9,340 nt of DNA from a virus (taxonomy: Monodnaviria; Loebvirae; Hofneiviricota; Faserviricetes; Tubulavirales; Inoviridae): the IMG/VR virus record IMGVR_UViG_2609460053_000007, one strand, 5' to 3'. This document shows, in pieces, positions 1-9,340 of the stretch. Below the pieces are notes generated by a model, which saw nothing but the letters and a program-made list of their open reading frames with translations, made no database searches and had not been told where the DNA came from. Made by a program: the position numbers and the translations under genes. Numbering within the stretch: the stretch's first letter is position 1; each line of letters starts with the position of its first letter.

Positions 1-150
1 AAATTTCCATATGAAGTATTACACCCGCAACATGGGATTGAAATTTTAGCGGGACTAAGCTTTGGAAGCAAAACTAAATACCGAATAAAACTCATATGGG
101 ATGACAATTATAAAAAAAGGAATGAAGAGGAGTTTTTCATTTCTATATAA
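1..150 (+). CDS. 5'-truncated copy of the C-terminal 49 codons of the 159-aa membrane-anchored protein (duplicate of 9092-9241)
   Basis: Sequence identical to 9092-9241 and in frame with the 8762-9241 ORF. It is truncated by the window edge, not necessarily a real pseudogene. Confidence 0.6.
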   Translation, partial: KFPYEVLHPQHGIEILAGLSFGSKTKYRIKLIWDDNYKKRNEEEFFISI

Positions 151-181
151 ATTGGTTCGCACAATGACGTTATGCTAAAGA

Positions 182-218
182 GGCCGCTGCGGGATACGAT
201 TTTCGCAGCGGCCTTTTC
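182..218 (+). terminator. Rho-independent terminator-like hairpin after the plus-strand accessory operon (copy 1)
   Basis: Perfect 10-bp GC-rich stem GGCCGCTGCG (182-191) / CGCAGCGGCC (204-213), 12-nt loop, followed by TTTTC (214-218). Lies 32 nt after the stop of the 159-aa ORF in the second copy. It could alternatively be an ori or packaging hairpin. Confidence 0.6.
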
Positions 219-247
219 AACATAACGAGTCGTACATTATGCGCACC
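215..247 (-). other. dif-like XerC/XerD recombination site (candidate attP) with extended central region
   Basis: Minus strand reads GGTGCGCATAA-TGTACGACTCG-TTATGTTGAAA. The XerC arm matches E. coli dif (GGTGCGCATAA) 11/11 and the XerD arm matches TTATGTTAAAT 9/11. The central region is 11 bp instead of 6 bp. The dif sequence is quoted from memory. Confidence 0.65.
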
Positions 248-281
248 AATGGTAAGGATGGCAGAATCTGGCGGGAATCGT

Positions 282-309
282 TGACACTGGCCGTCAACTG
301 GCTACTATC
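282..309 (+). promoter_or_regulatory. Candidate sigma70 promoter (TTGACA-16 nt-TACTAT) overlapping an inverted repeat
   Basis: -35 TTGACA at 282-287, 16-nt spacer, -10 TACTAT at 304-309. The -35 sits inside the inverted repeat GTTGAC (281-286) / GTCAAC (294-299). Predicted start near 316, reading antisense to the ORF 388-582. Confidence 0.35.
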
Positions 310-378
310 GACAGTGATTCAAAATCATCCGTTTCTCCAAACGAATCAGAATCAAATGTCTGTCAGCAGTAAGTGAAC

Positions 379-401
379 GGCCTGACCTCACCAATCAGGC
401 C
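379..401. repeat. Inverted repeat / hairpin GGCCTGA-(9 nt)-TCAGGCC
   Basis: Perfect 7-bp stem 379-385 / 395-401. The stop codon of the minus ORF 388-582 lies in the loop. Followed on the plus strand by TGTTCATCC. Possible terminator for a short plus-strand transcript or an ori/packaging hairpin. Confidence 0.35.
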
Positions 402-582
402 TGTTCATCCAGTTAGTTGGTAAATCTGTACCTGATACACGAGAATCAAACACCACTTCTTCAGTGCCATCACCATGATGCCGGAATGCTGGATCTTTAA
501 GAAGCATCACTTTCAGCTCCTGATGTGTCATGAATTTTTCCATGATAAGCCCCGATGAATGCTGCCGCGCCGAATCAGCCAT
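388..582 (-). CDS. Hypothetical small protein (64 aa; possibly 47-51 aa from internal ATGs), cargo position
   Basis: ORF in the six-frame track. No convincing SD before the first ATG; the internal starts (MEKF.., MTHQ..) have weak GGGG/GGAA upstream. No recognisable motif. May be a spurious ORF in a structured non-coding region. Confidence 0.3.
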   Translation of the reverse strand: MADSARQHSSGLIMEKFMTHQELKVMLLKDPAFRHHGDGTEEVVFDSRVSGTDLPTNWMNRPDW

Positions 583-727
583 AACGCTGAAAATGGAAAC
601 TGTACGGCTTGGCCAACCCCGGACAGCAACAAAACAAGTTTTGTCACTGACCGGCGTTATCTTTCAAAACAGACAGTTAACGATTTTTTGTCTGGTGTTT
701 ATGCGTGAAATTTCGTGCGTACGAAAT

Positions 728-976
728 TCACCACCAATAAACAAACGGACGATGACTGACCGGAAAAGCAATGCCGTCAGCATCATGACCACGCATTACC
801 TGATTGAGAAGCCTTCTGACTTCACGACGCTCAGGCCTGGTCATCATCATATTGCGATACCAGGACGGCGATTTATCAAACCATCTGGCACAACTGGCAA
901 AATGTGAACCTACACGACGATAAGACTTAAGGCGGCCACCGGGAAGTCGGTCACGCGCCTTATTTTTTACAGACAT
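728..976 (-). CDS. Hypothetical small basic Arg/Trp-rich protein (82 aa), cargo position downstream of gIV
   Basis: ORF with a good RBS (GAGGA, 6 nt before the ATG at 974-976). Same orientation as the core genes. No recognisable domain. Confidence 0.45.
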   Translation of the reverse strand: MSVKNKARDRLPGGRLKSYRRVGSHFASCARWFDKSPSWYRNMMMTRPERREVRRLLNQVMRGHDADGIAFPVSHRPFVYWW

Positions 977-1064
977 AATAAATCCTCTAAGTAACTGAAT
1001 ACCTAGAAGATGTCGTACTGTTCATACCCCATAAAAGTTAACGCCATAATAAAAATCCATACAA

Positions 1065-2309
1065 TCAGTTCAGGTTGTCCCGGAACAGTTCACCGCTCCT
1101 CGCGGCGCTGCGGGGCGTCGCCCTGCTCCGGTCAACCTTTCTGACCTGAAGCATCACCATAATATCAGTCTTGTTGCTTTCACTGGTACGGGAACCGAAG
1201 AAGCTCCAGCCGGAACTGGCCTTACTGTCTTTCTGTTCAGCAAGGCCACCAAGTAAAATAATATCACCATCTGCAAGGCTGACTTCGGTTGTTACATCAC
1301 GCTTGATAAGGGTTGGCGAGTTATTGACGCCGGTTTCAGTGGTCACAAAGTTGGAAAGCTGCTGCTGAATCTTGAGATCCATTGTCCGACTTTTGATTGA
1401 TGGCGTCACGTTAAACAAAACACCGCTGGAACGATATTCAACGGATTGCGTTGTCGTATTGTTATTCACCGTAACACTGCCCAGTACTGGCACATCAGAG
1501 CCGACTGAAAAAGACGCTGAGGCATTATTTTTTACCCGCAGTCGTGGCGCACTGACAACAGTAAAACGACTGTCGGTTTTCAGCAGATTGAAAATGGCAT
1601 CAATGGAGCCGGTTCGAATATTGATAAAATTATCCAGTCCGGCAGCACCAACTGAAATATTGAATTTATCAGACAGAATTTTAGCCGCTAAAAGAATGCC
1701 GGAGCCGTCAGACTGCGAGGTCTGAACCTCAAAAACATAACCAGAAACAACCACTTCATCACTCATCGTATCCAGCGAAGTGACCAGTGTTTTCAGGATG
1801 GCGATATCCTCTTTCGTACCATAATAAACCAGAATATCACCGGTTCGATTGATGTAGTTGCTTGCCCCTGATGAACCTTTTAGCGAATCGTCAGAAATCA
1901 CGGCTCCACTGTTATTGAAGGAGCCTGAAACGTAGCCGCCAAGAATATCAGACAGGTAGGCAACAGAACGGTACTGAGGCGTATAAGTCCATGTATAACG
2001 TGGCTTAACCGGCTCTTTCGGCGTATAGGGCGCGATAAAATCAACACCCTTTTTCGTCCATATTCGAATGTTCATATTGCCAAGATAACGGGTTACAAAT
2101 TCCCGTTCATCAATATCAGGTGTTAACCTGAATGTAATCATTCGTTCATCATTAACAAGCTGTGGATCTAGCATATACGGGACTTTAAGCACCTCACTGT
2201 AAATAAGAGAAATAGCCTCCGGTAGCTTGACTTTATTTAATTCAAGCTCTGACCCTGCGAAAGCACATGAAGAAAATAGTAGCGTTAATGCGAGTAAAAT
2301 CTTTTTCAT
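1065..2309 (-). CDS. Phage-encoded secretin (pIV-like) for virion extrusion
   Basis: 414 aa; N-terminal signal peptide MKKILLALTLLFSSCAFA with AxA cleavage motif; C-terminal secretin-like region (VVSAPRLRV...DGDIILLGGL...). Last gene of the morphogenesis block, as in Ff phages. Start ATG overlaps the gI stop (TAATG at 2307-2311). Confidence 0.85.
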   Translation of the reverse strand: MKKILLALTLLFSSCAFAGSELELNKVKLPEAISLIYSEVLKVPYMLDPQLVNDERMITFRLTPDIDEREFVTRYLGNMNIRIWTKKGVDFIAPYTPKEPVKPRYTWTYTPQYRSVAYLSDILGGYVSGSFNNSGAVISDDSLKGSSGASNYINRTGDILVYYGTKEDIAILKTLVTSLDTMSDEVVVSGYVFEVQTSQSDGSGILLAAKILSDKFNISVGAAGLDNFINIRTGSIDAIFNLLKTDSRFTVVSAPRLRVKNNASASFSVGSDVPVLGSVTVNNNTTTQSVEYRSSGVLFNVTPSIKSRTMDLKIQQQLSNFVTTETGVNNSPTLIKRDVTTEVSLADGDIILLGGLAEQKDSKASSGWSFFGSRTSESNKTDIMVMLQVRKVDRSRATPRSAARSGELFRDNLN

Positions 2310-3334
2310 TATTTTTTCCCCGTATAAAGCGTCACACGCTCACCATCAATAATTCCGCTCATCAACATCCCTTTGTAATTAAAACTGGATGCAGGAACGG
2401 CACGCAAAACACCGGCACCATTAACAAGAATCACAAACGCCCTGCCTTCACTGGTCATTCTCCCTGATATACGCCACTCGGTTGAAAGTGGCGGTTCAGC
2501 TGGTTCTGAGGGAGTATCTGGTGCTGGAGTAGCAGCGGAAGAACGAAACATGGCCGCATCACGTACATCTGTTGTAGTCAAATCTGGCGAGGGATCGCTT
2601 CGGCCAAACGTGCTGAAAAATGAGTAAATCAGCCAGCCTGACCCGATAAACATCAATGGAAAAAGCACAAGAAAGAACCTGACTTTGCCAGAATTCCAGA
2701 TGCTCTGGCGTTTATCTGTCTGCTTTTCATTACCGTTATTTCCTTCATAACTTTTGTAAAGTTCAAAAATATCAGGGTTATATTTATTGCGATAACTGGT
2801 GACGAGGTTGCTTTTATAGATTTTGTGGCCTGAATATACGTCAATGCAGTAATGATTATTCAGGCCCAACGCTTTCAGCTTGCGCATCCGGTAAGTTGTT
2901 TCTATTTTGTCTTTCAGAAAGCGAGCAATATTAGAAAGTGACTGATTTACAATAACCAAATCACAGCTAATACCCGTTTCAGGGTGCGTAAAATGACGAT
3001 GTTCAGCAATAAATGATTTCTTCTCAGCCGTCATATCCTTATCGCTACCGAAGATTCGCCATGCTTCATCAATAACAATTAAATCACCAAACTGGCAAAA
3101 GCTCCCTTCCCCACCTTTAAAAGGAAAGAAATCTGCTTTAAGCACATCATCATTATCCACAACAATAATTTCTCCCGTTGCATCAGGATAACGTTCGGTG
3201 ATTTTATCTTTTTGTAAACCATAAATGTTCGTCACAACTCTCCGGCCGCTGGTAAATGCCGGAATAATGACATTGCAAACGGCTTCATAACTTTTTCCTG
3301 AGCCGGGTATGCCAATATATGCAGAAATAGCCAT
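2309..3334 (-). CDS. Zot-like assembly ATPase (pI-like)
   Basis: 341 aa; Walker A GIPGSGKS near the N-terminus, Walker B-like LIVIDEAW, single TM segment (FFLVLFPLMFIGSGWLIYSFF) in the C-terminal half. Position between gVI and gIV. Confidence 0.9.
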   Translation of the reverse strand: MAISAYIGIPGSGKSYEAVCNVIIPAFTSGRRVVTNIYGLQKDKITERYPDATGEIIVVDNDDVLKADFFPFKGGEGSFCQFGDLIVIDEAWRIFGSDKDMTAEKKSFIAEHRHFTHPETGISCDLVIVNQSLSNIARFLKDKIETTYRMRKLKALGLNNHYCIDVYSGHKIYKSNLVTSYRNKYNPDIFELYKSYEGNNGNEKQTDKRQSIWNSGKVRFFLVLFPLMFIGSGWLIYSFFSTFGRSDPSPDLTTTDVRDAAMFRSSAATPAPDTPSEPAEPPLSTEWRISGRMTSEGRAFVILVNGAGVLRAVPASSFNYKGMLMSGIIDGERVTLYTGKK

Positions 3335-3337
3335 AAC

Positions 3338-3625
3338 TCACCCTATAACAGGAATACGTCGAATAATAAAACGAGTAGCCATTGCGGAGATAATCATACT
3401 AATCCCCTGTGGTAATTTACTCAGGTTAATGAAGTACCAGAATCCGTCTGATAAATTGGCAAACAGCGATGAGAGATTGCTTGAATCTGGCAGTAACTCA
3501 ACAAGGATTTCAACGAAGCCCTGGACTACAAAATACAGCGCAAAGAATACGACGAATTTAATAATCAATGACCGGAATACAAAACCTAACAAAGTATTTA
3601 ATGCACTAATCAGAATCCCAAACAT
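3338..3625 (-). CDS. Minor coat protein pVI-like (hydrophobic)
   Basis: 95 aa, strongly hydrophobic with multiple TM-like segments. Position between gIII and gI. Weak resemblance to f1 pVI (recalled from memory). Confidence 0.7.
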   Translation of the reverse strand: MFGILISALNTLLGFVFRSLIIKFVVFFALYFVVQGFVEILVELLPDSSNLSSLFANLSDGFWYFINLSKLPQGISMIISAMATRFIIRRIPVIG

Positions 3626-3637
3626 AGTTGCACTCCT

Positions 3638-5350
3638 TTAGGCACTCAGAATAATACGGAGCGCAACAAATCCCCATATAATCAGAAATATGGTTTCTAC
3701 GGCGCTTCTGTTCTGCTCAATTAACGGACAATGGGAGTCAATTCTGTACTGGTGATTAAACACGCTGAATTCAACAACGGGGCAGGATGCTGAACGAGAG
3801 CCGATGTTAAATTCGTTTGTAAAAGGCAACAAATTAATAATTGGCGTTAAAATATCTCTTGCCGTTGGCGTTTCTTCAAGCTCAGGCTCTTTTACACCGG
3901 GATCTTCTCCCAAATCTATATTGCCATTATTTCCAGTGTCAGATCCTGAGTTGTTATTAATGGTAATATCAATATTGACGTCAGCCCCTGCACTGTCAGA
4001 TACAGGTGAAAGCATATCTAATAACGTTGGAGATAGCCTAAGTTCCGACATCGCAGAAGTTACTTCAGCCGGTGAAACCTCTTTAAACGGTAAGCCGTTA
4101 TAATCGGCATTAACGGCAGCTTCAGACCACAGCTCGTTAATCATGTCGGCAAGAAGTGCTGGCGATACACTAACACTATCAAGATACTCCAGATAATCAA
4201 TCATGGACTCAATATTTCCAGCCTCCAGTACTTCCGTCATGGCTTTATATTTGGTATTGGTCCAGATAGTAAGCTCACTCTTTTCATCAATATCTTTTGC
4301 GGTGTAATCCTCTTTTTCAGGAACGGCACAAATCGTCGAATATCCACCATTTGACTGATTAGTCGTTTTACAAGGCGTGTTGTGATACTGATATTGCTTT
4401 CCTGCTGTTAAATAAGCAACGCTGTAATACATGGGAAGCCCTGCTACATTTTCATACATGGGAATACCTGCGGGAAATGAAGATGCGGCCGGGTTGCTAT
4501 ACAAGTGTGTAATCTCAGGTATTTCATAAAATGAGGAAGGATAAGTAAACTTATAATTCTGTTCAGTAAAGGATACATCTCCATTACTGTTGACAACTTT
4601 ATTCGTCACAGTGCGTTCAAAATTCGTTAGTGTTTCAGTATAAGTACGCGAGTTATAGTCATTAAGATAATTTCTGGCAATTTCAGTTGGATTATCACCA
4701 TAGTAATAAATTAGCTCTTTCGAATCCTGATAATAATAAAGTGCATTATCTGGCGTGGAATATCCTGTTTCAACACCTACAACTGGAGAACCCGCATCCA
4801 CATTATTACGACTAACATGAAGGATTACCGGACTTAATTCCTGTGGTTCAAAATTAACGGTTATCGTCTTACTTTCACCACTTTGACCACTGTACGTTAC
4901 TTCATATAAATTATCGGAAATCTTTTTACCGTTAGTCATTACCATTACCGAGCCGTCAGATGAACTCAAAGAAGACGGAACAAAAGATGATACAGCAGCA
5001 GCAATACCCGCCCACGTTGCAACACCGCTCATTTTGTATGATGAGGCAGCAGGCAAGTATTCGGCAGCATTAGCCGCAGCGCGGCCAACAAAAACACGGG
5101 TTGCTGTAAGCTGTGATGCCGTATAAATCGCATCATTGGCAGCAAAGCGACGAACAAGCACCCGGCCAACGACTTTAGGAATAACAGCCCGCGCAGCCAC
5201 TGCTGCAATTGCTGGTACAAATGAATATGAATATCGGGGAAAGGAAACCCAGAGAAAGGAAAAAATAAAGGAATAAACCGTCAGCCTCTTAGCCCAAGAA
5301 TAACGACATAAGCTGAGACGATCCCCCATAAAAGGGAACCCAATTTCCAT
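3638..5350 (-). CDS. Adsorption / receptor-binding minor coat protein pIII-like
   Basis: 570 aa as drawn. Asn/Gly/Ser-rich linker (NNNSGSDTGNNGNIDLGEDPG) and C-terminal hydrophobic anchor (IFLIIWGFVALRIIL), typical pIII architecture. SD GGAG 7 nt before the ATG at 5348-5350. An alternative start at the ATG 5030-5032 (M107) would give a 464-aa product. Confidence 0.75.
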   Translation of the reverse strand: MEIGFPFMGDRLSLCRYSWAKRLTVYSFIFSFLWVSFPRYSYSFVPAIAAVAARAVIPKVVGRVLVRRFAANDAIYTASQLTATRVFVGRAAANAAEYLPAASSYKMSGVATWAGIAAAVSSFVPSSLSSSDGSVMVMTNGKKISDNLYEVTYSGQSGESKTITVNFEPQELSPVILHVSRNNVDAGSPVVGVETGYSTPDNALYYYQDSKELIYYYGDNPTEIARNYLNDYNSRTYTETLTNFERTVTNKVVNSNGDVSFTEQNYKFTYPSSFYEIPEITHLYSNPAASSFPAGIPMYENVAGLPMYYSVAYLTAGKQYQYHNTPCKTTNQSNGGYSTICAVPEKEDYTAKDIDEKSELTIWTNTKYKAMTEVLEAGNIESMIDYLEYLDSVSVSPALLADMINELWSEAAVNADYNGLPFKEVSPAEVTSAMSELRLSPTLLDMLSPVSDSAGADVNIDITINNNSGSDTGNNGNIDLGEDPGVKEPELEETPTARDILTPIINLLPFTNEFNIGSRSASCPVVEFSVFNHQYRIDSHCPLIEQNRSAVETIFLIIWGFVALRIILSA

Positions 5351-5382
5351 AATTCAATCTCCATAATAACCTCAAGTAAAAC

Positions 5383-5401
5383 GGGCGATATTGCATCGCC
5401 C
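5383..5401 (-). terminator. Terminator-like hairpin downstream of the major coat protein gene
   Basis: 7-bp stem GGGCGAT/ATCGCCC with 5-nt loop. On the minus strand it is followed by GTTTTACTT. Ff phages have a strong terminator immediately after gVIII. Confidence 0.5.
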
Positions 5402-5414
5402 ATGAATAATGAAT

Positions 5415-5648
5415 TTATGCGGATTTAACGGTACGCAATACCCAGCGAACGCCAGCGACACCGGCATAAAGTGTTACCAGTGAAGCAGCAACGGCCATAA
5501 TCGCAACCAGAACTGTACTGAAATCAATGCTGTTCGTCAGCGGCGATAAATCAACACCACTTGATGCCGCTCCTTCTGCAGCGAAAGTCGCGCCAGAAAC
5601 AGCCATTAATGCAGGTACAGCCAGAAAACTAACGATTTTTTTAAACAT
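5415..5648 (-). CDS. Major coat protein pVIII-like
   Basis: 77 aa; signal peptide ending AxA (..SGATFA|AEGAAS), acidic N-terminus of the mature part, hydrophobic core (VLVAIMAVAASLVTLYAGVAGV), basic C-terminus (RWVLRTVKSA). SD GGAG 8 nt upstream. Confidence 0.9.
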   Translation of the reverse strand: MFKKIVSFLAVPALMAVSGATFAAEGAASSGVDLSPLTNSIDFSTVLVAIMAVAASLVTLYAGVAGVRWVLRTVKSA

Positions 5649-5682
5649 AACTCTATCTCCATTACATTTTAAAGGTTCGCAT

Positions 5683-5934
5683 TCAAGCAGTACGAACCAT
5701 CTTTATTACCTGTCCCACACCTACAGAAAAAAGCCAGAGCAGCAGGACAGAGCCAAAACCTAATGTCCAGTAATTTCCCATTGCAGAATAATCAATTTGA
5801 TGAAATGGTTCAGAACGTACCATTATTGCCTGACATTCTTTTGCATTGTTCGCATTACATAAATAACCTTCAATACGGTAACCATTTTCAGGAATATGAT
5901 TATCAAACTGAATATCGAAACCTGATGCATCCAT
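5683..5934 (-). CDS. Small protein with C-terminal hydrophobic helix at the pVII/pIX position (putative minor coat protein)
   Basis: 83 aa with C-terminal TM-like segment WTLGFGSVLLLWLFSVGVGQVI. Lies between gV and gVIII where Ff phages encode pVII/pIX. ATG 2 nt after the gV stop. Confidence 0.5.
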   Translation of the reverse strand: MDASGFDIQFDNHIPENGYRIEGYLCNANNAKECQAIMVRSEPFHQIDYSAMGNYWTLGFGSVLLLWLFSVGVGQVIKMVRTA

Positions 5935-5936
5935 AA

Positions 5937-6254
5937 TCAGCCTTTTATTTCAGTAATGCCGCCATCTGATGAAATGTTATAAGTTACTCCTTCCCTCCCC
6001 TCCATTGACCAGACGCGAACATATACAGGTATCTGGACTAACTTACCGATAAAATTATTTGCCTGATTCATTACACCGGCATTAACAAGAGCCTGAGATA
6101 CACGAATAATAATCTGGTCTTGCTTAGTGCCGCCAAAACCATCAGGAATCTCTAAGCCAACACCAATTTCATTATAGTATCCCTGACCATTGACCTTATT
6201 ACGCTGGCGAGCACCAAGCATTTTACCTTTTACAAAAAGACCATAATTAGACAT
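5937..6254 (-). CDS. Putative ssDNA-binding protein (pV-position)
   Basis: 105 aa, immediately downstream of gII and upstream of the coat genes. Assignment is by position and size only; no clear similarity to f1 pV was recognised. Confidence 0.55.
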   Translation of the reverse strand: MSNYGLFVKGKMLGARQRNKVNGQGYYNEIGVGLEIPDGFGGTKQDQIIIRVSQALVNAGVMNQANNFIGKLVQIPVYVRVWSMEGREGVTYNISSDGGITEIKG

Positions 6255-6265
6255 ATCACTCTCCT

Positions 6266-7318
6266 TTAATGCCAGTTACTGGCATGTGAAATACGGTTAT
6301 AATCGAAAATTAAACCTTTCTCATAAACCCATGATGGAATTTTGGCTGGTTTGGCTTCAAGAGTACGAACCAACGGAACAACGTTATTAGAATCCGGTGA
6401 CTCACAATAAAAGTTAATATCTATTCCGAAAGAAAGTAATTCTTTACGGTGTCGGTAGAATGTAGGTTTCGGTAACATCTCTTTCATGTTCGCGCCCTGC
6501 TTCCACAATAAATATGTAGACTGTATTTTTCTTGGGAGATTAATTATTTTTTCATCAGTTAATATAGTATTTTGATTCATTTCTATTCTCCCTACATAGT
6601 CAGAGAATAATTTATTGGGCGTCTCAATATTCCAGCTATTACCAAGCGTAAGATTCAAATCAATTAATTCAGTTGTTCTTAATGTTAATTCAATGCGTAA
6701 TTTATCTTTTGACCAGTCCAGTAAACCAGCTTTAACGAATTCGTCTGCCATCTGGTGCCCTTTTTTGCCAGATGTATGCTCATCATATTTTGAATAAAAT
6801 TTCAGGCTCCAACGACGGGAGTTTTTCCCTAAGTAAACAGTGCCACCTTTACCACAGGCGCGACCGTGGCGAGTTTTAGCTTTAAATTCTGCGGCATATA
6901 ACCATGCGCGGACATTTTCTAATGTTGACAATGAATACATGTAATTGATATCGATGCGCGAGATCTTAAATTGCCCTTCCATGACCTGCCGATAGGATGG
7001 TAGATCATGAGGAATATGCAGTAATGCCAATATTCTGGCGTAAGCTGTTAACACCAACCCTTGCAAATCGTCGGAACCGATAACAGAGTGACCTTGCAAA
7101 AACTTTGATGGATTACCGTCAATGTAGAGATGTGTTGCCCGACCTTCACCATCAGATCCAACAGACCTTACTTTCATTGTGGACTCATGCGAACCGCGAA
7201 CGGTCAACCGTTTTACTGTTTCCCACTCCACTGCACCGTCAGCATCGACGCTGACGACACTACCAGCCGGTAACGGTCGGTGTGTGCAAGGCAGGATTCC
7301 GGTAAACCAGTCGATCAT
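6266..7318 (-). CDS. Rolling-circle replication initiator (pII / RstA-like)
   Basis: 350 aa; N-terminus MIDW... and motif KFLQGHSVIGSDDL resemble f1 pII (MID..., KVLQGHNVFGTTDL, recalled from memory). First gene of the minus-strand block, divergent from the HTH regulator. Confidence 0.85.
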   Translation of the reverse strand: MIDWFTGILPCTHRPLPAGSVVSVDADGAVEWETVKRLTVRGSHESTMKVRSVGSDGEGRATHLYIDGNPSKFLQGHSVIGSDDLQGLVLTAYARILALLHIPHDLPSYRQVMEGQFKISRIDINYMYSLSTLENVRAWLYAAEFKAKTRHGRACGKGGTVYLGKNSRRWSLKFYSKYDEHTSGKKGHQMADEFVKAGLLDWSKDKLRIELTLRTTELIDLNLTLGNSWNIETPNKLFSDYVGRIEMNQNTILTDEKIINLPRKIQSTYLLWKQGANMKEMLPKPTFYRHRKELLSFGIDINFYCESPDSNNVVPLVRTLEAKPAKIPSWVYEKGLIFDYNRISHASNWH

Positions 7319-7344
7319 AAGTAGTCACACCCATCAAAATATGT

Positions 7345-7416
7345 GTCAATAGTCATTTGTGAGCAGATTGAATGGTCACAATGTAATATGCTCAGTTCTG
7401 ACAGTCAATACATTTG
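7345..7416. promoter_or_regulatory. Imperfect direct repeats GTCAATA(GT)CATTTG: candidate operators in the divergent control region
   Basis: gtcaatagtcatttg at 7345-7359 and gtcaatacatttg at 7404-7416. The second overlaps the predicted -35 of the gII promoter. Confidence 0.35.
7380..7408 (-). promoter_or_regulatory. Candidate sigma70 promoter for gII (minus strand)
   Basis: On the minus strand: -35 TTGACT (7403-7408), 17-nt spacer, -10 TACATT (7380-7385). Confidence 0.4.
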
Positions 7417-7427
7417 CAATGTTTAAA

Positions 7428-7457
7428 TTGTCAGAAATGAGCATCAAATCTAACTAT
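7428..7457 (+). promoter_or_regulatory. Candidate promoter for the HTH regulator gene
   Basis: -35 TTGTCA (7428-7433), 18-nt spacer, -10 AACTAT (7452-7457). Weaker match than the gII promoter. Confidence 0.25.
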
Positions 7458-7489
7458 TGAAAAACCACTGTTAAGATGGAGCCAAGTAG

Positions 7490-7936
7490 ATGGGCAACAA
7501 TGAGCATGAAGTTATGGCGGACAAACAGAGAGCAGAACGTATCAAAAAGGTAATTCTGGAACACTCGACTTATGAAGAACTGGCCAAGAAGACTGGCATT
7601 AGCGTGAGTACGCTGGTCAGGATAGCGTCCGGCAAAACTGAACCTAAATTCAGTGACATCATTCAGATAGCTAAAATTACGGGTGCAGACTTAAACACCT
7701 TAGCTTATGGCTATGCTCTTGATGTTAAAGAAGAAGCTACCGAGCGGAAGCTAATCACTTCTGCGGATGGATATACTGATGAAGAAACCACTAACGCACA
7801 TAATTTCATCGTGTGGAACATCAGGACACTGGAAAAACAAGATATTCTGGCACTCGCAAGGCAGGTTTCTGCCTTAAGTTCATACACTTACAGTACTAAA
7901 ATGTTTATGAAAAAAGCGGTGTCTGGAGAAGAGTAA
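7490..7936 (+). CDS. HTH XRE/Cro-CI family transcriptional regulator, putative phage repressor (RstR-like position)
   Basis: 148 aa; helix-turn-helix signature EELAKKTGISVSTLVRIASGK plus a C-terminal extension of about 70 aa. SD GGAG 8 nt upstream. Divergent from the replication gene, as rstR is from rstA in CTX-type phages. Confidence 0.8.
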   Translation: MGNNEHEVMADKQRAERIKKVILEHSTYEELAKKTGISVSTLVRIASGKTEPKFSDIIQIAKITGADLNTLAYGYALDVKEEATERKLITSADGYTDEETTNAHNFIVWNIRTLEKQDILALARQVSALSSYTYSTKMFMKKAVSGEE

Positions 7937-7947
7937 AAGGATTAACA

Positions 7948-8001
7948 GTCTCAGGAATGAGACAAACGTGCAGTATTACCAACACTGCACGTTCTTTATT
8001 G
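7948..8001 (+). terminator. Tandem hairpins after the regulator gene (terminator or operator palindrome)
   Basis: GTCTCA-GGAA-TGAGAC (7948-7963), then a perfect 10-bp stem AACGTGCAGT (7965-7974) / ACTGCACGTT (7984-7993) with 9-nt loop, followed by CTTTATTG. Confidence 0.5.
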
Positions 8002-8035
8002 TGCGAATTTTGAACAGTGAAAAAGGATCAAAAGG

Positions 8036-8458
8036 ATGAGTAGAAATAACGAAACAAGCGGCGTTGAACTGGTTGTCGTGGGCGTATTTGCTTTCTGTCT
8101 GGCAGTTGTTGCCTGGCTAATGAAAACTTTCGATGTTGAATGGCAAACAGCGCTGGAAACTGCGCCTGGCCTGATAGTGTGGCTGCTTGTTGTCGGGGCG
8201 GGGATCTTTTTCGGGATCAAAATGGAAACAGGCCTTGTTCGCTGGGGTGCTCCACTGGCGATCGCCCTTCTGATTCCGGTATTCAAACCAATTCTTAAGG
8301 AAGCTGCCGGAGTTCGTGAAACGGGTGGGCTGGTTTTCGATGATATGGTTTCGTGGTACGGAACTGGCTGGGGAATGTCGTTGATGTTTTTCGGAATTCT
8401 TATCATCGGATACGGGATGCTTTATTGGTGGCACAGAAGAAATTCATATTACTGGTAA
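8036..8458 (+). CDS. Hypothetical integral membrane protein, about 4 TM helices (accessory operon gene 1)
   Basis: 140 aa; hydrophobic segments at about residues 12-29, 45-61, 70-83 and 112-132; aromatic/basic C-terminus WWHRRNSYYW. SD AGGA 8 nt upstream of the ATG. Confidence 0.75.
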   Translation: MSRNNETSGVELVVVGVFAFCLAVVAWLMKTFDVEWQTALETAPGLIVWLLVVGAGIFFGIKMETGLVRWGAPLAIALLIPVFKPILKEAAGVRETGGLVFDDMVSWYGTGWGMSLMFFGILIIGYGMLYWWHRRNSYYW

Positions 8459-8486
8459 TCAATAAAACGTAGAAGAGAGGAAATAT

Positions 8487-8762
8487 ATGAAACTGAATCC
8501 TGAGAAATACAATAGAAATATCACCCTGCTATGTCCTGTGTGCGGAAATACAGAGATGGAACACGAGGAAGAGTCTGAAGTCGTCAGATGTGTAGGCTGC
8601 GGGAAAGAATTCACTAATGATGAGTTAATCCAAGAAAACGGGGTGAGTATTGACGCCCATGTGGATGAGATAAAAGAAGAGTTAACAAAAGATATTCAAA
8701 AACAGTTTAACGACATGCTCAAAAAGGCATTTAAAGGAAGTAAAAATATAAGGATTAAATAA
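8487..8762 (+). CDS. Hypothetical zinc-ribbon protein (accessory operon gene 2)
   Basis: 91 aa; Cys16-x2-Cys19 ... Cys35-x2-Cys38 (CPVCG-x15-CVGCG); acidic middle and Lys-rich C-terminal helix-like tail. Strong SD AGAGAGGA upstream. Stop overlaps the next start (TAATG at 8760-8764). Confidence 0.7.
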   Translation: MKLNPEKYNRNITLLCPVCGNTEMEHEEESEVVRCVGCGKEFTNDELIQENGVSIDAHVDEIKEELTKDIQKQFNDMLKKAFKGSKNIRIK

Positions 8763-9241
8763 TGACAACAAGTGATGCCATCGCTTTAGCTGCGCTTGTA
8801 GTATCGATTTACACTATCATATCATCAGAAGTGAAGTCGAGAAAAAGTGATAGAGAACAAAAGGTTATAAAGGATGAGCAAGACAGATTACGTAAGTTGC
8901 TTCTGGAAAAAGAAACAAAGTCAGCAATTAATGAGATGAAGGCTGAGCTTGGTGCCCGCCTCGTAAAAATAGCCAAAAACAACTATAGACTCAAGATATT
9001 TAATAGAGGGAAAGTTGAGGCTAAAAATATAGAGATTCATTTCCCTGATAACGATGGCAATGAATATCTTTCCATGCATGATGTAGAAGATAAATTTCCA
9101 TATGAAGTATTACACCCGCAACATGGGATTGAAATTTTAGCGGGACTAAGCTTTGGAAGCAAAACTAAATACCGAATAAAACTCATATGGGATGACAATT
9201 ATAAAAAAAGGAATGAAGAGGAGTTTTTCATTTCTATATAA
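8762..9241 (+). CDS. Hypothetical N-terminally membrane-anchored coiled-coil protein (accessory operon gene 3)
   Basis: 159 aa; N-terminal hydrophobic helix (AIALAALVVSIYTIIS), highly charged K/E/R-rich helical region, then a C-terminal domain. Start is translationally coupled to gene 2. Followed by the strong hairpin at 9273-9309. Confidence 0.7.
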   Translation: MTTSDAIALAALVVSIYTIISSEVKSRKSDREQKVIKDEQDRLRKLLLEKETKSAINEMKAELGARLVKIAKNNYRLKIFNRGKVEAKNIEIHFPDNDGNEYLSMHDVEDKFPYEVLHPQHGIEILAGLSFGSKTKYRIKLIWDDNYKKRNEEEFFISI

Positions 9242-9272
9242 ATTGGTTCGCACAATGACGTTATGCTAAAGA

Positions 9273-9309
9273 GGCCGCTGCGGGATACGATTTTCGCAGC
9301 GGCCTTTTC
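9273..9309 (+). terminator. Rho-independent terminator-like hairpin after the accessory operon (copy 2 of 182-218)
   Basis: Identical to 182-218: 10-bp GC stem, 12-nt loop, TTTTC tail, 32 nt after the stop codon at 9239-9241. Confidence 0.6.
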
Positions 9310-9338
9310 AACATAACGAGTCGTACATTATGCGCACC
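9306..9338 (-). other. dif-like XerC/XerD site (copy 2 of 215-247)
   Basis: Identical to 215-247; the window ends 2 nt beyond the XerC arm. Confidence 0.65.
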
Positions 9339-9340
9339 AA

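Follow-up and report, generated by a model that had tools for sequence, protein, structure and literature searches.

Filamentous phages of the CUS-1/Ypf-phi family are grouped with CTX-phi as CTX-type phages, in which a folded single strand is integrated at dif by XerCD. Their virion DNA is described as 'positive' single-stranded. The hosts of Ypf-phi (Yersinia pestis) and of CUS-1 (invasive E. coli K1 and uropathogenic strains) gain modestly in fitness from these phages during infection. A review of Ypf-phi assigns to YPO2280a/2281 the position that ctxAB occupies in CTX-phi, and in the literature on Ypf-phi the function and regulation of the two ORFs adjoining the attachment site are not known.

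The locus described here shares with the ctxAB slot of CTX-phi and with moron promoters a predicted autonomous sigma-70 promoter in the cargo slot nearest the attachment end of a filamentous prophage that integrates at dif, and with the CTX-phi slot the interchangeability of its cargo cassettes. Unlike the promoters of moron and CTX-phi cargo, it lies in the conserved backbone rather than in the cassette, is directed against the structural operon and, in the DNA analysed here, has no gene to express and opposes the cargo ORF. As with the cis-antisense and convergent promoters of phages and plasmids, a strong promoter faces converging 3′ ends without coding capacity of its own; it differs from cis-antisense systems in that there is no defined terminator or conserved target overlap, the RNA is predicted only, and the target ORF varies or is missing among carriers of the module. 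In the Frpo/ssi elements of conjugative plasmids the whole promoter lies within one long hairpin. Those elements and the present locus share the idea that recognizable -35 and -10 hexamers become active once a transferred single strand has folded, but an inverted copy of 281-308 is absent here. The viral strand of the Ff phages reportedly carries two adjacent hairpins, [B] and [C], with -35-like and -10-like sequences, in work attributed to Higashitani et al. 1996/1997. Like the Ff (f1/M13/fd) minus origin, where the process depends on the sigma-70 holoenzyme, the locus combines a non-coding inovirus region, an RNA that would be complementary to the packaged strand and adjacent viral-strand hairpins with -35/-10-like sequences. 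In filamentous phages the sigma-70 holoenzyme primes synthesis of the minus strand (PMC3411601).

The stretch of DNA analysed here, called the window (9,340 nucleotides), comes from a CUS-1/Ypf-phi family filamentous prophage at dif. Bases 1-249 are identical to 9092-9340, and the window therefore holds one 9091-nt unit of which 249 nt appear twice, as at the junction of tandem prophages or in a circular form. E. coli SF-173 carries this sequence adjoining hipA, as a tandem filamentous prophage, and Y. pestis has a gene IV that is 100% identical. The genes and the attachment site are arranged as follows.

7318-6266, minus strand: gene II/X replication protein, 58% identical to gene II of phage I2-2
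2309-1065, minus strand: secretin, gene IV
minus strand: DNA-binding protein, coat proteins and Zot-like gene I
minus strand: two small ORFs, of 82 aa and 64 aa
7490-7936, plus strand: HTH repressor
plus strand: three more ORFs, the last ending at 9241
154-247: CTX-type attP, two inverted dif-like sites (154-180, plus; 247-215, minus) around a GC hairpin at 181-214

From this gene orientation we take the minus strand of the window to be the packaged one; the structural genes all lie on that strand, so an RNA from a plus-strand promoter would be complementary to the packaged strand. A circular 9565-bp E. coli 'plasmid' (NZ_CP128883.1) matches 421-700 at 99.6%, has the same adjacent genes and looks like a replicative form.

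The plus-strand dif-like site of the attP (154-180) reads GGTTCGCACAA-TGACG-TTATGCTAAAG and the minus-strand site (247-215) reads GGTGCGCATAA-TGTACGACTCG-TTATGTTGAAA; together, as is characteristic of a CTX-type attP(+), 154-247 folds as a very stable forked hairpin (z=-7.5). Canonical dif is joined at CATTATGCGCACC in the single prophages of VR50, K. spallanzanii, 90-9280 and Phytobacter. A convergent intergenic gap of 237 nt extends over 151-387. The promoter begins 34 nt phage-inward of the XerC arm of dif/attP, and the feature at 281-405 lies outside attP. The second proposal of the preliminary description, that transcription enters the prophage from its att end, is supported, and the att side had been rightly placed, with dif/attP at 154-247. 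Within and beside the feature the following elements were recognized.

281-286, plus strand: -35 hexamer TTGACA, 6/6 to consensus, invariant in 18/18 distinct variants
303-308, plus strand: -10 hexamer TACTAT, 4/6 to consensus, with T1, A2 and T6 retained
309-314, plus strand: discriminator, 6/6 columns variable among relatives
280-298: inverted repeat GTTGAC-N7-GTCAAC (H1), arms 280-285 and 293-298, overlapping the -35 and the spacer
315-372, plus strand: conserved untranslated leader, a TGATTC/GAATCA stem (315-320/349-354) enclosing a CGTTT-CTCC-AAACG hairpin (330-343)
374-407: GC-rich hairpin (H3), made up of 379-401 plus TGAAC/GTTCA with one bulge, conserved loop CCTCACCAA
388-582, minus strand: 64-aa ORF, homologue of YPO2281 of Ypf-phi, in no Pfam family, opposed by the predicted transcript

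The motif TTGACA-16-TACTAT, which had been placed at 282-287 and 304-309, was recovered by the promoter scan on the plus strand one base lower. With a score of 10/12 and a 16-nt spacer the site at 281-308 conforms to sigma-70 hexamers and spacing; three sites in the window reach 10/12, and only this one has a perfect -35. The score alone does not exceed chance for the window, whose 17 promoter-like sites are fewer than the 23.8 +/- 4.1 that the scan found in shuffled versions; by our own arithmetic, sites of this quality are expected about 0.2 times per window and about 0.006 times in the 237-nt convergent gap. It is on account of its conservation, not of its score, that the site stands above chance. 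Transcription usually starts 6-8 nt downstream of the -10, which puts the predicted start at about 315-317. Inspection by eye revealed nothing convincing in the way of LexA, CRP or FNR-type boxes. The literature search found no origin, promoter or small RNA at the 281-405 site in CUS-1/Ypf-phi, and in the literature searched the promoter is thus undescribed for the family.

The repeat GTTGAC/GTCAAC in which the -35 is embedded is present as first reported, at 280-298. In single-stranded DNA it forms a hairpin, of which both arms are conserved and the loop (287-292) is variable. Its suggested role as an operator is unsupported, since no second close copy occurs in the window, including the repressor-controlled region at 7319-7489. 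The 3′ arm of the repeat is conserved though it lies within the spacer, and a plain promoter leaves this arm conservation unexplained.

The module was recovered by BLAST, pattern scans and protein-anchored searches, most variants being gathered through anchors outside the promoter, and 18 distinct versions were aligned. They came from E. coli, Y. pestis, K. spallanzanii, E. tracheiphila, IMG/VR genomes and metagenomes; the region is present in 119/5426 complete E. coli genomes. Across the 18 variants, positions 278-407 form a discrete conserved unit. Within 280-314, two of the 12 hexamer columns vary as against 14 of the other 23 (18 variants; Fisher one-sided p=0.015), a contrast that rests on few independent events because the carriers are at least 87% identical and their divergence is shallow. 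The sole -10 variants, each in one sequence, are AACTAT (L026) and TGCTAT (L046), the latter having lost the key A of the -10. The retention of the hexamers while the spacer loop and discriminator vary fits the pattern of a working linear sigma-70 promoter. E. tracheiphila has kept all 30 nt of the promoter block (100% identity) between two unrelated flanks, and its module is 13% diverged elsewhere. Taken with the co-oriented gene of a sister lineage described below, this conservation suggests that the plus-strand sigma-70-like promoter previously proposed is probably functional, and that 281-308 is probably a real promoter of the ordinary kind.

Comparison with E. tracheiphila and Brenneria shows a sharp left edge of the module at about 278. 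The preceding AAGGATGG...GGGAA is also present in Brenneria alni and Phytobacter, where a short, different hairpin follows and the promoter module is missing; no analogous non-homologous promoter was found at the same position in either. Since these relatives have a similar att-proximal architecture, the module is dispensable for the phage family. In E. tracheiphila (L006) a 1.17-kb three-gene cargo (6954-8156) lies exactly between attP and the -35, and gene IV is broken by a transposase-like insert. Two metagenome contigs, L041 (742-1492) and L051 (minus strand), carry a common deletion derivative in which 245-397 is fused to 7851-8454 and all structural and replication genes are gone; the longer contig, L051, has other cargo and an attP copy beyond the fusion. 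These derivatives were considered as evidence of a promoter driving plus-strand genes and set aside as simple internal deletions.

Downstream of the promoter the window offers, as the sole start, a 6-codon ATG at 356 without a ribosome-binding site. A promoter for a plus-strand protein in the window was rejected, ORF 530-907 being interrupted in relatives. The minus-strand 82-aa ORF has third-codon-position bias, and the lack of conservation of the one together with the codon bias of the other argues that the window's transcript would be non-coding and antisense. The 64-aa ORF itself has a 54-nt in-frame deletion at about 478 relative to the copies in SF-173, Y. pestis, A4, VR50 and Klebsiella, and a separate 2-nt indel at 408-412 alters its C-terminus by lineage, to ...PTNWMNRPDW or ...PTATG before the stop. 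Between the 64-aa and 82-aa ORFs lie strong hairpins at 615-658 and 705-731. The first of these persists even in the relatives from Brenneria and Phytobacter, which have no promoter module, and could be a family-wide minus origin or regulatory site.

In the L008 lineage (E. coli 90-9280 and related IMG/VR genomes) positions 410-589 are replaced by a plus-strand 81-aa gene, which starts about 150 nt beyond the predicted transcription start, after a structured leader of about 145 nt. A co-oriented downstream unit is thus present in that lineage and absent from the window, where no plus-strand ORF is conserved. No other plus-strand promoter-like site was found upstream of the 81-aa gene on the phage side of dif. 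The gene belongs to a real protein family, with homologues at 65-78% identity. Members are found in integrase islands and, next to a zeta-toxin-like gene, on a plasmid of Erwinia; these plasmid and island copies have other upstream sequence, and the module is absent upstream of them. From the distribution of these sequences the promoter appears to belong to the phage backbone and to read into an exchangeable cargo slot. On the Erwinia amylovora contig (L052, 2756-3842) the 81-aa homologue lies directly upstream of a zeta-toxin/AAA_33-like gene, and TrbI/TrbH conjugation genes are found on the same contig; the zeta-toxin neighbour suggests that the 81-aa family may be an antitoxin-like partner.

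The reading that we place first, tentatively and at slightly short of an even chance, is that of a genuine sigma-70 promoter of the CUS-1/Ypf-phi backbone that fires into the cargo slot and whose product is antisense in the window. What is observed is the motif, the selective way in which it is conserved, the discrete limits of the module and the different cassettes that occupy the cargo slot; firing in vivo, the position of the RNA end and any regulatory effect are what these sequences lead us to infer. The promoter would fire on the plus strand, from about 315, into the attachment-proximal slot. In the sister lineage (90-9280) the same promoter and leader would serve the co-oriented 81-aa cargo gene. 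In the window, because the slot holds an opposite-strand ORF, the transcript would be an untranslated RNA antisense to ORF 388-582, directed against the 3′-end of the long minus-strand phage operon, and convergent transcription or antisense pairing might lower expression of the YPO2281-like ORF or of the operon tail. Untranslated antisense RNAs of such a kind are commonly ended by Rho or by processing. A backbone promoter aimed at the cargo slot would give a handle on cargo expression or silencing while the phage operon is repressed.

The same sequences can be read, with a probability that we consider low, as a complementary-strand origin, at which H1 and H2 on the viral single strand would recruit the RNA polymerase holoenzyme to make a short primer RNA of plus-strand sequence, as at hairpins [B]/[C] of the Ff phages. 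H1 (280-298) then holds the -35 as a duplex, and the base of H2 (303-371) contains the TACT/AGTA of the -10. Folding of single-stranded 270-412 gives three hairpins (z=-4.3), hinting at a role at the DNA level, and the RNA from the promoter would be complementary to the packaged strand and come from the non-coding gap at 151-387. The sigma-70 holoenzyme priming known from filamentous phages fits a promoter-like site (PMC3411601), the phage has an I2-2-like gene II (58%) and an I2-2-like plus-origin hairpin (7955-7994) together with no detected homologue of the I2-2/Ff minus origin, and the derivatives lacking 398-7850 retain 245-397, the plus-origin region and attP.

Variation within the module argues against such an origin. 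The -10 stem (309-314/360-365), in which the discriminator would supply the 3′ arm at the base of H2, is its most variable part, with changes that are uncompensated: the -10/discriminator stem is broken without compensation in L006, L009 and L008 while H1 is kept, and the stem pairs are broken at four of six positions in E. tracheiphila and three of six in VR50. The RNAalifold covariation term is +0.46, with just one compensated pair, the G.T versus C.A changes, about eight events each way, favour neither strand, and the version of the L008 lineage folds no better than shuffles (z=-0.9). The Brenneria and Phytobacter relatives do without the module. The M13 control showed that the minus origin of Ff does not take the form of a linear promoter, whereas 281-308 does; nor does the locus have sequence homology to that origin, the I2-2 match being confined to the plus-origin hairpin. 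We would add that H1 joins H2 by its -35-distal end, and the 16-bp promoter geometry is then not reproduced. Were the origin reading true, the complementary-strand origin of a CTX-type integrating phage would be located beside its single-stranded attP; otherwise the site adds an ordinary promoter annotation. A plus-strand origin at 281-405 was rejected, the sole I2-2 intergenic homology lying at 7955-7994. There, between the repressor gene and ORF 8036-8458, 41 nt of the minus strand match the I2-2 intergenic hairpin TGCAGTGTATGTAATACTGCA (90%, E=4.5e-8), and this element is likely the plus-strand origin or gene II nick site.

An origin role would not preclude promoter activity when the DNA is double-stranded. 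A dual use on these lines, with a cargo-slot promoter in the double strand and a complementary-strand primer site on the incoming viral strand, is distinctly unlikely in our estimate. With the polymerase recognition site 34 nt from the folded attP hairpin, it would set polymerase and XerCD in competition on adjacent hairpins, and the outcome would decide between single-strand integration and establishment of the replicative form. In a variant of this scheme, divergent supercoiling from the promoter could aid extrusion of the attP cruciform from double-stranded DNA.

More doubtful again is a conserved minus-strand nucleic-acid structure whose likeness to a promoter is incidental, either as stem-loops in the 3′-UTR of the operon or YPO2281-like mRNA or as a signal acting in cis on the viral strand, for packaging or otherwise. 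H3 stands directly after the ORF stop in the common variant, minus-strand G.T pairing is retained in its two informative variants, the predicted fold is strong, and H1 keeps both arms around a variable loop. Structure does not account for A307 and T308 of the -10, which are unpaired in every predicted fold yet invariant, and the discriminator, which would have to form a stem, varies freely. By our arithmetic, about 0.006 perfect -35 hexamers with the right spacing are expected in the 237-nt gap, and an accidental one is unlikely. A better candidate for a packaging signal lies at the 3′-end of gene IV: at 1065-1149 (minus strand) a long GC-rich hairpin (z=-3.1) extends over that end and is placed like the annotated morphogenetic signal of I2-2.

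The preliminary description had further envisaged a discrete cis-antisense RNA of 70-90 nt, running from about 316 to the hairpin at 379-401 and acting on the 3′-end of ORF 388-582. The hairpin GGCCTGA-N9-TCAGGCC is confirmed at 379-401. Its overlap with the stop codon holds in the window, where TGA (390-388) lies in the loop, but not as a general feature: it is lineage-specific, since Klebsiella and A4 have the stop elsewhere through a 2-nt indel and the L008 lineage has no such ORF, and H3 is itself absent or truncated in three carriers of the module (L020, L041 and L051). No U-tract follows H3 on either strand (the tail after 407 is TCCAGTTAGTTGG), and the terminator scan did not call it. 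In both informative H3 variants (2/2) the minus strand can still pair, as G.T, where the plus strand has a C.A mismatch. With no U-tract and variants that favour the minus strand, a discrete RNA ending at 379-401 is unsupported, and H3 does not, to judge from its sequence, appear to be a terminator delimiting such an RNA. We give this model very little probability. In its favour are the probable reality of the promoter, the conservation of the leader (315-372), a stable stem-loop (z=-2.6) that could protect a processed 3′-end and two apical-stem variants (L010 and L026) that make G.U pairs on the plus strand. Against it, besides the missing U-tract and the strand preference of the hairpin variants, the overlap with the ORF would be just 18 nt and is unconserved, the same leader precedes a gene in the L008 lineage, which lacks the ORF, no Rfam match came near threshold, and no covariation was detected (one compensated pair under the RNAalifold term given above). 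A non-functional relic, the former promoter of a cargo gene of the 81-aa type that is young and undecayed in the CUS-1/Ypf-phi lineage, is equally improbable: the carriers are little diverged and the downstream slot has been swapped between lineages, but the contrast between hexamers and neighbouring columns (p=0.015) points to ongoing constraint and the promoter is perfectly retained in E. tracheiphila despite the 13% divergence elsewhere in the module.

Some further observations concern the attP. Its GC hairpin (181-214) is followed by TTTTC on the plus strand and by TCTTT on the minus strand; because of these flanks it may double as a bidirectional terminator for both converging gene sets. 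A homologue of about 71 nt (about 93% identity to 153-224), covering one dif-like arm and the GC hairpin, occurs on about 440 plasmids, mostly conjugative IncF-type plasmids of E. coli, and in the one plasmid examined (L059, 2501-2571) it lies directly after a gene of the STM4504/CBY_0614 family.
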